NCBI GenBank assembly: GCA_937870775.1 | Contig: CALMZU010000306.1 | Location: forward strand, 1-41,538 | Length of the DNA: 41,538 bases | Origin: an uncultured Elusimicrobia bacterium | GTDB taxonomy: Bacteria; Elusimicrobiota; Elusimicrobia; Elusimicrobiales; UBA9959 | Reading direction: 5' to 3' | Shown here: one piece after another, positions 1 to 4,144 of the stretch | How positions within the stretch are numbered: the first letter of the stretch is position 1 | How the letters are laid out: every line of letters begins with the position of its first letter | Notes under the pieces: model-generated | Database searches by the model: none | Seen by the model: the letters and a program-made list of their open reading frames with translations, nothing else | What the model was told of the DNA's origin: nothing | Position numbers and translations under genes: made by a program

Positions 1-11
1 TGATAATCATC

Positions 12-22
12 TAGAGGTCCCC
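12..22 (+). repeat. Left sub-terminal inverted repeat of the IS
   Basis: TAGAGGTCCCC is the exact reverse complement of 1513-1523. Confidence 0.85.
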
Positions 23-87
23 TCCTGCAGGTTGTGTAAAATTGCTTTGTCGAGGAGCAAAGTTACAAACCTGAGGAGGAGACACTT

Positions 88-1107
88 ATGAGATTATACG
101 CCGCAATCGACCTGCATTCCAACAACAGCGTACTGGTAATCCTGAACCAGAGCGATAAAGTCGTCTATGAGAAACGCCACCCGAACGACCTGCCGACGAT
201 CCTGGCGCAGTTGAAACCGCACAAAAAAAGCATCCAGGCAATAGCGGTTGAATCTACGTACAACTGGTACTGGCTGGTCGACGGTCTTCTGGAGGCCGGT
301 TACGAAGTGAAACTTGTAAACACGGTAGCAGTGAAGACATACGACGGGCTGAAGTACACCTCCGACGAGCACGACGCACGGCACCTGGCGCACCTGCTGA
401 GGTTGGGAATACTGCCGACGGCCTACATCTACCCGAAAGAAGAGCGCGCCGTGCGCGACCTGCTGCGCAAAAGGGCACAGTTAGTGCGGGACCGCGTCAC
501 GCATATCCTGAGCATCCAGAATCTGGTCACCCGCAACAGCGGCAAGCAGATAACGCAGGCCGGCATACGCAGGTTGGATGAAAATACGCTGGGGCTGTTC
601 TGCGGCGGAAACGCCTTCCGCGTAATGGCGATAAAAAGCAGTTTGGAGATTCTGCGCTGCCTCGACGGACAGATAGCGGTGCTTGAACGGAAAGCACTGG
701 AGCAGGCCAAGGTGAAGCCGGAGTTCAAGCAGGTGACGACAATCGACGGAATCGGGGAGATCCTCGGCATGACCATTATGTATGAAGCCGGGGACATGGA
801 GCGTTTTGAAGAAGTGGGGCAGTTCGCTTCGTACGCGCGGTGCGTGGGGAGTTCCCGCTGGAGCAACGGCAAGAAGAAGGGCGAGAACAACCGGAAAAAT
901 GGGAACAAGTACCTGGCCTGGGCGTTTGTGGAAGCGGCGCACCATGCCGTGCAGTATAACGAACGTGTCAAGAAGTTCTACCAGCGCAAGAAGGCACGCA
1001 CCAACAGCGTAGTAGCCTGGAAGGCGGTGGCGCACAAACTGGCGCGTGCCTGCTATCACGTGGTAAAGGATAGAATCGCTTTCGACGAGGCGCGGGCTTT
1101 CGCGTGA
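88..1107 (+). CDS. IS110 family transposase (RuvC-like DEDD recombinase)
   Basis: N-terminal AIDLH, AVEST, KYTSDEHDA (DEDD residues); C-terminal TIDGIG, FASYA, SxGK and AVAHKLAR motifs; AGGAGG RBS at 74-79. Confidence 0.95.
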   Translation: MRLYAAIDLHSNNSVLVILNQSDKVVYEKRHPNDLPTILAQLKPHKKSIQAIAVESTYNWYWLVDGLLEAGYEVKLVNTVAVKTYDGLKYTSDEHDARHLAHLLRLGILPTAYIYPKEERAVRDLLRKRAQLVRDRVTHILSIQNLVTRNSGKQITQAGIRRLDENTLGLFCGGNAFRVMAIKSSLEILRCLDGQIAVLERKALEQAKVKPEFKQVTTIDGIGEILGMTIMYEAGDMERFEEVGQFASYARCVGSSRWSNGKKKGENNRKNGNKYLAWAFVEAAHHAVQYNERVKKFYQRKKARTNSVVAWKAVAHKLARACYHVVKDRIAFDEARAFA

Positions 1108-1109
1108 AG

Positions 1110-1505
1110 ATTTGGTGCGGCAGGCGAGCTCGTGGGTTCGCTGGCAGAACCAGTAGCCTTGATTAGACGCCTGCCGCACCCGCTGTTTTAGGCGGAGACG
1201 CCCTGGTCGTGAGCCAATGAAGCGCTGGCGCGGCGCAAGCCGCAAGCCATAAACTTGTGGGCGGACATTTTGTTCGCCGTTAAATGGACACGACTGGGAA
1301 CCAACGGTTTTCTGGGCCCCGGTTACACGGGGCAGGGGCTTCGGCGGTAGTATTGCCGCGGCCTTGATCCTGATGGGTGCGTGGTGCGGCTTCGTCCGAC
1401 GCCACTTAAAGAGAACCAGGGAGCGGCTAAGCCTTGAGCAGCATGACAGAACGGATTTCTATGAGCGGAGAAACCACAAACCTGTGGTCGGAGAGGCTTT
1501 GCCTC
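1110..1505 (+). ncRNA. Putative bridge/seek RNA in the IS right non-coding end (boundaries uncertain)
   Basis: Perfect 13-bp stem 1114-1126/1168-1180 enclosing an internal loop and a CTGG/CCAG hairpin; loop segment 1132-1141 is the reverse complement of 1530-1539 (last core base plus flank); 1373-1381 is identical to 1524-1532; further hairpins to ~1505. Confidence 0.7.
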
Positions 1506-1512
1506 TTGACTC

Positions 1513-1523
1513 GGGGACCTCTA
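1513..1523 (+). repeat. Right sub-terminal inverted repeat of the IS
   Basis: GGGGACCTCTA is the exact reverse complement of 12-22; TTGACT (-35-like) lies just inside at 1506-1511. Confidence 0.85.
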
Positions 1524-1717
1524 ATGGGTGCGAACCCACTTCTCGCGGCAAGGAGCAGTGCGGGGCCGCGCTGCGTGGCCACGCCTGCGACGACATCTCG
1601 CGGATAAGCTTCCCCGTACCGCTGATCTAAAGACAGAAAGCAGCGTTTATATTGGGTTATCGGGGTTTTCGGCAAAGAAAAGTCGAACTTTAGTGCGAAG
1701 ACTCCGCCAGATTTCCC

Positions 1718-1755
1718 TAAACGAAGAACCCCGCCCATGCGGGGTTCTTCGTTTA
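1718..1755. terminator. Intrinsic terminator-like hairpin, possibly bidirectional
   Basis: Perfect 17-bp stem TAAACGAAGAACCCCGC / GCGGGGTTCTTCGTTTA with a 4-nt loop, 24 nt after the stop of 1780..2367 (-). Confidence 0.7.
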
Positions 1756-1779
1756 TGTAAGGGTACGCCTTTGGGCGTC

Positions 1780-2367
1780 TCACCGGCACAGGGCCTGGTT
1801 GCAGGTGTAGCCCTCGTTGTAGGAACATCCTCGCTGGACGGGCCCCCCATCCTCCTCCGCGGCGGCCTCGCAGCTGGCGTTGCGCAACAGCGCCGGGCCG
1901 GAACGGGCCAAGGGCATGACAACTTTCAGTATCTCGCCGTACTTCGACGGGGGCACTGACCGCTCAAGGAGCGCCGTCCTCGCCGAGACGAAACCGCCGT
2001 CAAGCAACGTAAGGCTGTCCAGGAAATCCGCGGCGGCCGCCGGAGGAACGCCGCGCATGACCTCCCGCATATCCGACAGCGTTTTTCCGCCGGCCGGCAC
2101 AAAAGATTCGGCGTCGGCGGCGGAAGACTCGAAGGCCTTAAGAATGGAATCGGTCTTGGCTCCGGAGAAGCCGCGCTTCTTCAGCGTGGCATAGTTCATA
2201 GAGGCCACGCGCCCGTTTATCAGGCGCATGCCGGACATGAACTCGGTCCTGTCTTTTTGCGGCAGACCGCCGAGTATGTCTTTCACGGTCATGAGCCTGC
2301 CCCGGTACTGGCCTTCAGCCGCGGCGGCCGCGGCAAGGCATAGGCACAAGACCGCGGCCTTCTTCAT
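1780..2367 (-). CDS. Secreted hypothetical protein with internal tandem repeat and C-terminal Cys4 tail (paralog of 3313..4035)
   Basis: Signal peptide MKKAAVLCLCLAAAAAA; ATGA overlap with the upstream gene; aligns by eye with 3313..4035. Confidence 0.8.
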   Translation of the reverse strand: MKKAAVLCLCLAAAAAAEGQYRGRLMTVKDILGGLPQKDRTEFMSGMRLINGRVASMNYATLKKRGFSGAKTDSILKAFESSAADAESFVPAGGKTLSDMREVMRGVPPAAAADFLDSLTLLDGGFVSARTALLERSVPPSKYGEILKVVMPLARSGPALLRNASCEAAAEEDGGPVQRGCSYNEGYTCNQALCR

Positions 2368-3266
2368 GCCGGGTCCTTCCCGCCCAGCCCTATCAGCTTC
2401 AGGCCTTTGCGTATCTTTCCCAGGGAAACCTCGCCGTTGTCGTCGCTCCAGCCTTTAAAATCATACAGCACCTTCCCGTCCAGCAGGAAGTAGAAACGCG
2501 GGGAGAAGGTCAGGTCGAAACCGGGGAAGTCCCCCGACTTCCGGGCCACGTAGACCGGAATCGGGGCGAAGAGGGCTTTATCCGCTCTGACGGCGGCCGG
2601 GTCGAAAGACCGGGTTATGACCACCGTGTTGGCGCGCAGCGTCTCGGCCAGCCCTGGGCTGCGTTTTACGCCGGCTATGGCCGACACTACGGACCCGCAG
2701 CCGGGCAGTACCACTATTACAACCTTCGGCCCGGTGCCCAGCGGCAGGGTAAGCGCATCTGCCCGCCCGCCGTCGGCCGAAATATCGAAGACCTGCCACT
2801 GCCCCGCCGTTTTCCCTGCGCCGATCACGGCGGGGATATCCACGGCCTCCGCATCCGGGAAACGTCCCTTCAGCGAGGAGGCCTCGCTAAAAAGCCGAGC
2901 AGCCACCAGGCCTGAAATGGTCTTAGCCGCGTCTTCCGGGCCGGCCCGGCCGCGCCGCGCCTTCTCCTCGAAAACCGTCCTCACCTTAAGGGCCAGGCTT
3001 TCATCGTCGGGCGAATAGAACGACGCGGAACGCAGAAGCCGGAAGAGGGAATCTACGGCGCCGTCAGGATAACCTCGCAGGCTCTCCGCGGAGAGGTCCG
3101 CGCCACGAAGGCCGCCGGCGCAGGCGCTTATCGCGGGATTGTCCCGTCTCTGTTTTGCGTCGTCCACGCAGGCGGCGGCACGCGTTATACGCCGCTGCCC
3201 GCCGGCACAGCCGGCGGCTAGCAGCGCGCACAGTACCGGACAAAGAATGCCTCCGTGTCTATTCAT
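2364..3266 (-). CDS. Putative lipoprotein with C-terminal thioredoxin-like fold
   Basis: Likely start MNRHGG (3266); lipobox LAAGC; KVVIVVLPGCG strand-turn and SPRFYFLLDGK...FKGW cis-Pro-like motif. Confidence 0.6.
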   Translation of the reverse strand: MNRHGGILCPVLCALLAAGCAGGQRRITRAAACVDDAKQRRDNPAISACAGGLRGADLSAESLRGYPDGAVDSLFRLLRSASFYSPDDESLALKVRTVFEEKARRGRAGPEDAAKTISGLVAARLFSEASSLKGRFPDAEAVDIPAVIGAGKTAGQWQVFDISADGGRADALTLPLGTGPKVVIVVLPGCGSVVSAIAGVKRSPGLAETLRANTVVITRSFDPAAVRADKALFAPIPVYVARKSGDFPGFDLTFSPRFYFLLDGKVLYDFKGWSDDNGEVSLGKIRKGLKLIGLGGKDPA

Positions 3267-3312
3267 AAACTGCGCCCCTGAGCTAATGACTACGCGCACA
3301 CCACTTCCGTAC

Positions 3313-4035
3313 TTATTTGCAAACACTAGAATCGCAAGTCGAGTCCTCCGTGGAGGAACAGCCGTACTCGATCGTCCTGTCGTTAAATATCCAGGCCTCG
3401 CACGTAGCGTTCTTTACAACACTCCTGACGGCAGCACCATTAACGACCGACGGCAACACCGACTGAATTATCTGCTCCGCCCTTTCAGCGGGAACGGTCG
3501 CCCCCAACTGGCCGGTCTTTACCGACGCCACCTTGCCGTCGAGAACGCGCATGCTTTCAATGAACTCTAGCCGGGCTTCTTCCGGAAGGTCCTTCAGCAG
3601 CGCTCCAAGTTCTATACCGCCATTGCTGTCCGTCATGCCCTCGGTCCTGGCCGCTGAAGCGATGAACGGCTTCAGAACAGCGTCCACGCGCGAAGCGGGG
3701 AGACCTTTATCGATAAGAGCGGCCCTGTCCGCCGGGAAAATATTGCCGTCCGCTATGCGCATCCCGGACATCAGTTCGACGCGTTCCCCGGCCGAAAGCC
3801 CGGAAAGAAGGTTCTTAACCAGCACCAGCCGCCCCCTGTAGGGAGCCGCTGGCGCGGCATTAATTGCCGGCTCGCCGGCTTTCGGGCCGGCCTTCTCCTG
3901 ATCCGCCCGCTCCTGCAGGTAGGTGTTAACGCTTGTGCCGCTGGGGCCGTCGAACAGTACTTTAACGTCCGAAGCGTTAGCCGCGCCAGCCGCGAAGAAC
4001 GCAAAACCCGCCATCGCTATTATATGTCTTTTCAT
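3313..4035 (-). CDS. Secreted hypothetical protein with internal tandem repeat and C-terminal Cys4 tail (paralog of 1780..2367)
   Basis: Start MKRHIIAMAG with GGAGG RBS 5 nt upstream; signal peptide ending ANA; shares the YRGRL..VK..L.GL...R.E.MSGMR motif. Confidence 0.8.
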   Translation of the reverse strand: MKRHIIAMAGFAFFAAGAANASDVKVLFDGPSGTSVNTYLQERADQEKAGPKAGEPAINAAPAAPYRGRLVLVKNLLSGLSAGERVELMSGMRIADGNIFPADRAALIDKGLPASRVDAVLKPFIASAARTEGMTDSNGGIELGALLKDLPEEARLEFIESMRVLDGKVASVKTGQLGATVPAERAEQIIQSVLPSVVNGAAVRSVVKNATCEAWIFNDRTIEYGCSSTEDSTCDSSVCK

Positions 4036-4144
4036 TACCGCCTCCATAAAATTCCCGTCTATGCCGGTGACGGGGCATTTTTTATGCCAAGCGGCCATGA
4101 AAGGCTAAGAACTAGCGGAGCTTATTCCGGATTTAGGGGGATTT

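Follow-up and report, generated by a model that had tools for sequence, protein, structure and literature searches.

A putative guide RNA encoded downstream of an IS110-family transposase gene in an uncultured Elusimicrobia bacterium appears to spell the DNA on both sides of the insertion site

Does the non-coding DNA behind a transposase gene name the site at which its insertion sequence now sits? The question arises at one end of a 41,538-nt stretch of DNA from an uncultured Elusimicrobia bacterium (GTDB UBA9959; contig CALMZU010000306.1, assembly GCA_937870775.1), referred to here as the window. An initial annotation had proposed that a stem-loop just past a transposase stop codon carries the guides of an IS110/IS1111 bridge recombinase. 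In the assembly, which has 361 contigs, the window is contig C306; its first base falls exactly on the TG of the element. We put at about 0.88 the probability that the 3' non-coding region encodes a guide RNA (seekRNA or bridge RNA) that spells the DNA on either side of the insertion site. The stem-loop system is then a further example of the mechanism described in 2024 (PMC11187229, PMC11208160), and not a new mechanism.

Judged by layout and protein matches, positions 1 to 1530 hold a single copy of an insertion sequence of the IS110 family, IS1111-type in its arrangement, of 1,528 bp plus the duplicated TG core (Table 1). The right flank begins at 1531, since the second core copy occupies 1529-1530. 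As laid out in PMC11187229 and PMC11208160, the IS1111-type organisation comprises subterminal repeats, a short left end, and a long non-coding right end. Here, 87 nt lie 5' of the start codon versus 423 nt (about 420) 3' of the stop, and the subterminal repeats are perfect, standing 10 nt and 7 nt from the ends with the core included. Their 11 bp fit the 7 to 17 bp given for the IS1111 group (PMC11187229). An inverted-repeat search of positions 1 to 1600 returned three pairs, namely 12-22/1513-1523, 1114-1126/1168-1180, and 1132-1141/1530-1539. Upstream of the transposase gene, most relatives keep the core followed by A(T/A)AATCAT(C/A)TAG. Because a single full copy of the element was assembled in this genome, the genome offers no independent insertions of the exact element; the element is also present in DNA runs of several wastewater studies.

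Table 1. Features of the element and of its right flank, in window coordinates
Feature	Position	Strand	Remarks
TG core, left copy	1..2	+	Repeated at 1529-1530; last 55 nt of contig C299 equal window 1-55
Left-end spacer ATAATCAT (left donor half), from core to subterminal repeat	3..10	+	
Left subterminal inverted repeat TAGAGGTCCCC	12..22	+	11 nt, 100% complementary to 1513-1523
Transposase gene, 339 aa	88..1107	+	DEDD/RuvC-like N-domain and Transposase_20 C-domain (Pfam)
Putative target-binding stem-loop	1114..1180	+	13-bp stem 1114-1126/1168-1180; internal loop with small hairpin UGG 1142-1144...CCA 1150-1152
Putative right-target guide	1132..1141	+	Exact 10-nt complement; would pair with top strand of core G and the 9 flank bases 1531-1539
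Putative left-target guide TAGCCT, core UG (1160-1161), AU (1162-1163)	1154..1163	+	1155-1159 match left flank
Conserved multi-branched structured domain of the non-coding region	1182..1442 (ends approximate)	+	Predicted fold
Putative donor-side guide: CTGATGGG (right-end tail copy), TG (core), CG (right-flank bases 1-2)	1370..1381	+	
-35-like TTGACT in right end	1506..1511	+	With GATAAT (1530 + 3-7), a candidate promoter only on the end-joined circle
Right subterminal inverted repeat GGGGACCTCTA	1513..1523	+	Inverted-repeat search
Right-end tail ATGGG and right TG core copy	1524..1530	+	Same layout in relatives
Right half of host repeat (target)	1531..1634	+	1531-1539 is the putatively guided right flank

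The IS110/IS1111 identity given in the initial annotation is borne out by the subterminal repeats and by three profile matches of the transposase: PF01548 (E 3.7e-15, 56.5 bits) and PF02371 (E 3.7e-18, 66.1 bits), both over their cut-offs, and NF033542, "IS110 family RNA-guided transposase" (193.4 bits versus a cut-off of 140). Similarity to the solved structures of IS621 (8wt6, E 1.3e-10) and ISCro4 is distant, with E about 1e-10. The acidic residues D8, E55, D93, and D96 are present; the last three align with acidic residues of IS621, and D8 falls outside that pairwise alignment. A conserved serine, S259, lies within WSNG (258-261), and the pairwise alignment sets N260, off by one, opposite the serine of the IS621 ESG motif, which we take to be the catalytic serine. 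The C-terminal motif of the clade is RCVxSxxxSNG. Its SNG pattern occurs in 62 of 80 relatives, and the unmatched rows that were inspected show SNG or SNS. The consensus given for IS1111 transposases in PMC11187229 is GL-P----S(t)G, which as written is absent from the window's transposase. We therefore file the element as IS110 family with IS1111-type organisation, a placement made by layout.

Two features previously reported just past the stop codon, a perfect 13-bp stem and a loop 10-mer that recurs as its reverse complement at the right end, proved exact to the base. The stem arms are 13 nt long, 100% complementary, and 41 nt apart, and among six close relatives 5 of the 13 first pairs of the closing stem are preserved through two-sided changes. 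The 10-mer, GTGGGTTCGC (1132-1141), is the exact reverse complement of 1530-1539. It forms a unique pair, occurring in just these two places in the 41.5-kb window, where 0.12 occurrences are expected, and at least two matches arose in 0 of 100 shuffles. Beyond the small hairpin, TAGCCTTG sits at 1154-1161. The two segments are opposite in strand sense, 1132-1141 being complementary to the top strand and 1155-1161 reading in top-strand sense, such that the 3' segment would pair with the bottom strand of the target. The AU at 1162-1163 equals the first two bases of the left end. An E-value scan of window positions 1 to 2000 against Rfam found no family covering the putative guide RNA.

The loop also predicts DNA that lies outside the window. 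From it the initial annotation had read a left flank TAGCCT-TG. The final 55 nt of contig C299 are identical to window 1-55, and the bases before them read ...GTGCCGAGCCT, giving a flank of GAGCCT-TG. Five of the six predicted flank bases and both core bases are thus as foretold, and position -6 is not; that position is also the usual mismatch in relatives. Since a 55-nt overlap is all that links C299 to C306, the left flank might, should the genome carry a second copy of the element, come from that copy, inserted at an equivalent site. Paralogous sites without an insertion read ...GAGCC-TG-CGAACCC on contig C45 and ...GGCCT-TG-CGAACCC on contig C124. The octamer GCCTTGAT (1361-1368) was also considered as a guide for the left junction, which it matches, yet it is kept in relatives with other flanks, and for that reason we regard the match as coincidence.

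The DNA that received the element is itself a structured, multicopy, intergenic repeat of about 235 nt, running from GTACGG to TACCGC, with the target at position 134. C299:6562-6695 corresponds to repeat positions 1-134 and window 1529-1623 to positions 134-226; because the two halves meet at position 134, the element splits one repeat unit at TG. The repeat was found in 17 of 18 other same-genus genomes searched, with up to 13 matches each, and none turned up in 12 genomes from other genera in the order. Its fold is conserved, with compensatory changes at 8 of 64 pairs, and the insertion point is the 3' foot of a predicted hairpin within it. No Rfam family matches the repeat, and it may be MITE-like or encode a small RNA.

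If the loop names the target, then loops and flanks should change together across relatives, a test that the initial annotation had proposed. Scanning one genome per species gave 562 relatives; the best 80 (52 to 83% protein identity) were examined, together with three drawn from same-genus genomes. Nearly all share a common plan 3' of the stop: a stem, GAGC, about 10 variable bases, a UGG...CCA hairpin, 5 to 7 variable bases, a core of UG or CG, AUU or AAU, and the second stem arm. On the left side, a parsed loop together with at least six flank bases was available for 52 of 81 elements; the other 29 had no recognisable left end, were cut by a contig end, or did not fit the pattern. In these 52, the left guide matched its own flank at a mean of 3.87 of 6 positions versus 2.24 for the flanks of other elements, and permitting U for C and G for A raised the own mean to 4.52. 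On the right side, where the better of two registers was scored for 52 non-identical rows, at least 7 of 9 positions matched in 30 of 52, and the summed score was 344 versus a permutation mean of 239 and maximum of 270. Both sides gave a strongly positive result, 0 of 10,000 permutations attaining the observed sum on the left and 0 of 10,000 attaining 344 on the right, counts that overstate significance because the relatives are phylogenetically non-independent.

The core behaves in the same way. TG, the core originally proposed, is present at the element's two ends, and the guide core equals the element's core in all 52 elements of the left-side set. It likewise equals the left-end core in 46 of 46 relatives for which both cores and the guide core were parsed, 7 of these being CG. 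The two bases that follow the core in this first loop equal left-end bases 1-2 in 60 of 62 relatives. The clearest cases come from close relatives. The right flanks of L011, L012, and L013 all differ, and the loop matches each at 9 of 9 positions, with a CG core in guide and ends; the window itself matches its right flank at 9 of 9 with a TG core. The transposases of these four elements are 73 to 76% identical and their right flanks are unrelated. They show clean natural retargeting, which is independent of the caveat of shared ancestry.

The details of the guides vary. The left guide is short (5 bases plus the core) and often imperfect among relatives. In the window's register of the right guide, the core G pairs with C1141, which immediately precedes UGG; over the 52 rows this register scored better in 18, a guide ending directly at UGG scored better in 28, and 6 were ties. 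DNA run X1 contains a minor variant contig with three changes, at 1133, 1154, and 1159, each of them within the guides. The changes give CGAACCCGC and AGCCC-TG, both of which are found in repeat copies of other genomes.

Some elements depart from the simple layout. The closest relative, L010 (83% protein identity), and likewise L107, carries 7 extra bases, CAGGCCT, between the guide-predicted flank and the left core, and its right-end tail is without 4 bases (L010:2180-2200, 3710-3722). CAGGCCT is the left half of a window-type target, and the structure may reflect a rearrangement between two elements in the same repeat. L010/L107 failed the parsers and, treated as a decayed or rearranged copy, were left out of the flank statistics. 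Unequal end cores (CG left with TG right, or the reverse) were seen in L110 (G002:C193) and in 3 of 46 rows of the core table, as expected if donor and target cores differed at insertion.

The remainder of the non-coding region also shows signs of an RNA structure. The minimum free energy z-score for 1105-1530 is -4.46, and a consensus fold of six relatives has 96 pairs, 21 of them with compensatory changes. Within this region the initial annotation had pointed to an identity between 1373-1381 and 1524-1532. The identity is exact, and ATGGGTGCG occurs at these two places only within the window; as a bare 9-mer, however, it is not significant, with 0.40 occurrences expected and at least two matches in 4 of 100 shuffles. 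Its meaning rests instead on conservation in the family. Most relatives carry, about 250 to 300 nt 3' of the stop, the motif GCCTTGA(T/A)C-CTGATG(G/A)GTG plus two bases, which copies the right-end tail and core in sense orientation. It is as a family-wide copy of right-end tail and core that we read ATGGGTG (1373-1379) as a putative donor-side guide. Whether the copy reads ATGGG or ATGAG, the same variant stands in that element's right-end tail (52 of 52). Most relatives then have AC, the dinucleotide with which most right flanks begin; this dinucleotide is identical to the start of the same element's right flank in 43 of 52, and in 8 of the 9 elements with bases other than AC, among them the window (CG). 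Among the 17 elements whose flanks do not start with AC, the rule fails in 9 (AC kept, or mismatch). In the consensus fold the motif at 1370-1381 is unpaired between two hairpins inside the large multi-branched domain, a predicted position in keeping with PMC11208160, which remarks that many IS1111 elements have their donor-binding bases in a multi-loop.

For the left donor half, the initial annotation had found no convincing guide, and we likewise found none beyond the two bases after the core (1162-1163). A search of the non-coding regions for complement of, or identity to, the circle junction gave scattered 6- to 7-mers only, none conserved in place. UGAUUA (1160-1165), complementary to the left-end TAATCA, was dropped as a candidate, the AAUGGG subfamily being without it.

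Some of these patterns have rival explanations. The stem-loop 1114-1180 and the following CGCUGUUUU could be a mere terminator of the transposase gene, and the flank match might have arisen through the insertion itself, for instance as captured target. The long stem, G+C-rich and directly 3' of the stop codon, would suit a terminator, as would the short U-run at 1186-1189, 5 nt past the stem and invariant in six relatives. However, a terminator scan did not call the stem-loop, and a terminator does not predict a 41-nt interior of conserved anchors and two variable blocks that track each element's own flanks. The U-run could instead mark the 3' end of a short seekRNA form, and the two readings of it are compatible. 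That the stem-loop does nothing but terminate transcription is, in our estimation, highly improbable. We consider it very unlikely, too, that the protein chooses the target by reading folded repeat DNA and that loop and flank match through shared ancestry in similar repeats. Many relatives do have similar targets (...AAGACC-TG-ACCCC...) and guides, so that part of the covariation signal is phylogenetic, and the target belongs to a structured repeat, in which it marks the foot of a predicted hairpin. Protein reading is nevertheless hard to reconcile with L011, L012, L013, and the window, in which transposases 73 to 76% identical meet unrelated right flanks and the loop follows at 9 of 9, or with cores that change together with guide cores in 46 of 46. 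The reprogramming described for ISEc11 (PMC11187229) and IS621 (PMC11208160) shows that in those elements the RNA decides.

A further alternative concerns the donor side only. The motif at 1359-1381 resembles the right end minus its subterminal repeat, with CTTGA(T/C) and then CT(G/A)ATGGGTG, and it might be a degenerate internal copy of that end which acts, or once acted, at the DNA level, with no RNA guide involved. The insignificance of the bare 9-mer would suit such a copy. The motif is nevertheless nearly invariant down to 52% protein identity and lies unpaired between conserved hairpins. The agreement of its tail variant with the true end in every case, the agreement of the next two bases with the flank in 8 of 9 non-consensus cases, and the multi-loop donor-binding bases reported for many IS1111 elements (PMC11208160) also count against it. 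We regard a role at the DNA level as unlikely.

Taking the non-coding region to encode a guide RNA, both sense-strand guides can be seen to spell product junctions, because the bases past the core match the other partner (AU of the left end, CG of the right flank). The junctions spelled are left flank-core-left end and right end-core-right flank. Two published ideas would suit this. One is handshake pairing after strand exchange, as described for the IS621 handshake guides (PMC11208158); the other is recognition of integrated junctions at excision, for which the flanks at the donor must be correct (PMC11187229). A more detailed reading is tentative, and we think it possible but rather doubtful as a whole. 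The guide RNA of this clade may be long (about 280 nt or more) and built unlike that of IS621, with the target loop directly after the gene, then a conserved insert of about 190 nt, and then a multi-loop donor site. The right end alone would be read by base pairing and the left end by the protein via the long subterminal repeat, and both sense-strand guides would extend two bases over the core to spell the two product junctions. If true, this would be a three-guide variant in which one RNA reads junctions for excision and insertion.

Expression may depend on a circular form. When the two ends were joined in silico, TTGACT, an 18-nt spacer, and GATAAT gave a candidate promoter with 10 of 12 consensus matches, and TTGAC is present in 5 of 6 close relatives. 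For the integrated form, no plus-strand promoter-like site was called in positions 1 to 1800, and the left junction reaches at most 8 of 12. The candidate at the circle junction agrees with the junction promoter described in the literature. In three RNA libraries, contigs lie over parts of the transposase gene and over 1122-1401 (X14 covers 1122-1294 and X16 covers 1182-1401, at depth 2.5 to 2.6); such contigs are not proof of transcription and their uncovered parts are uninformative, and we take them as a weak hint of transcription. By analogy with the published mechanism (PMC11187229, PMC11208160, PMC11208158), the element would excise as a circle whose joined ends form a promoter, its -35 element lying at 1506-1511 and its -10 element spanning the joint, to drive transcription of both the transposase gene and the guide RNA. 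The guide RNA would bind the transposase and align the circle junction with the target GAGCC(T/C)-TG-CGAACCC, and strand exchange at the TG core would leave the element inserted.

The nearest described systems are the seekRNAs of the IS1111-family elements ISEc11, ISPa11, ISKpn4, and ISPst6 (Siddiquee et al. 2024, PMC11187229). Like ISEc11, whose TnpEc11 has the same length, the element encodes a 339-aa DEDD transposase. It shares with the IS1111-family seekRNA elements the subterminal inverted repeats, the long non-coding region downstream of the gene, natural retargeting among relatives, and a stem-loop soon past the stop in which the top-strand match lies 5' of the bottom-strand match. Its repeated, foldable target recalls the REP of ISPa11 and the attC of ISKpn4. 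It differs in its C-terminal motif, as given above, and in the extent of its non-coding region, 420 nt with structure to about 1442, whereas the long forms of published seekRNAs are 145 to 170 nt. Its guide RNA, moreover, is a prediction from sequence.

With the bridge RNA of IS621 (Durrant et al. 2024, PMC11208160; Hiraizumi et al. 2024, PMC11208158), as those papers describe it, the element has in common target and donor recognition sites on one RNA (here predicted), a 2-nt core common to guide, donor, and target, core-adjacent bases that match the other partner as in handshake guides, and a promoter, here a candidate, formed at the circle junction. In contrast to IS621, the RNA would lie at the 3' end instead of the 5' end, its top- and bottom-strand guides come in the opposite order, and the element has long subterminal repeats, with distant protein similarity (E 1.3e-10). 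The IS621 donor loop has left and right donor guides, whereas the putative donor site here sits in a multi-loop with the right-donor guide alone recognisable. The REP-targeting elements ISPpu9 (PMC12288879) and ISPpu10 (bioRxiv 10.64898/2026.03.19.712850) of Pseudomonas putida also use one position of a multicopy intergenic repeat. The host phylum here is another, as is the repeat (about 235 nt, genus-specific), the comparison being one of descriptions.

The element leaves the picture of the mechanism unchanged. What it offers is an IS1111-type guide programme that is readable from raw sequence, well enough to predict an unseen flank, and a well-resolved clade with many natural retargeting events, 562 relatives having been recovered and 80 examined. 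The relatives could be compared to address the rules of guide length, those of guide register, and the junction-spanning (handshake) bases of IS1111-type systems, a group that has received less study than IS621.

Other mobile sequences lie in or beside copies of the repeat. One sibling element, seen on contig C100 and in L126 and L010/L107, is inserted in opposite orientation at CTTCTCGCGG-CA, about 20 nt from the window's target. L010's loop reads this sibling site (GGTCTCGCGG versus CCGCGAGA). The end of C100 holds the 207-nt start of a related element, 87% identical, with its guide region unassembled, which is all that a look for further copies in this genome gave; the loop of the C100 sibling is expected to spell CCGCGAGAAG for the right side and ...GCTCCT-TG for the left. 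Contigs C315 and C145 were considered as extra flanks and set aside: they stop a few bases before the target site, carry no element sequence, and represent assembly breaks in the repeat. Copies of the repeat were seen on C45, C124, C100, C315, and C145, and in relatives the copies are at times clustered or partly tandem (G015:C95 45210-45610). On C45, the 3' end of a group II intron (domains V-VI; L004:1297-1367; Rfam RF00029, 56.5 bits, gathering 40) directly abuts the first base of an intact repeat copy, and the repeat may also be a homing site for the intron. On C124, a DUF3800-IX RNA (RF02968, 57 bits, gathering 36.8; L003:1363-1428) lies about 70 nt upstream of a partial repeat copy. Pfam searches of the genes beside two other repeat copies found no shared neighbour.

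To the right of the repeat in the window, positions 1723-1750 form a perfect G+C-rich hairpin, GAAGAACCCCGC...GCGGGGTTCTTC, which scores as a terminator on both strands and is the sole Rfam hit of window positions 1 to 2000 (a terminator-like partial RsmY). It sits between the repeat and a convergent gene at 1780-2367. That gene and the adjacent genes at 2364-3326 and 3313-4098 are all on the minus strand and are without Pfam matches. The first and third (1780-2367 and 3313-4098) are paralogous (34% identity, E 1e-34), and these paralogues have an internal duplicated module and a Cys-rich C-terminus, C..GCS....C....C.
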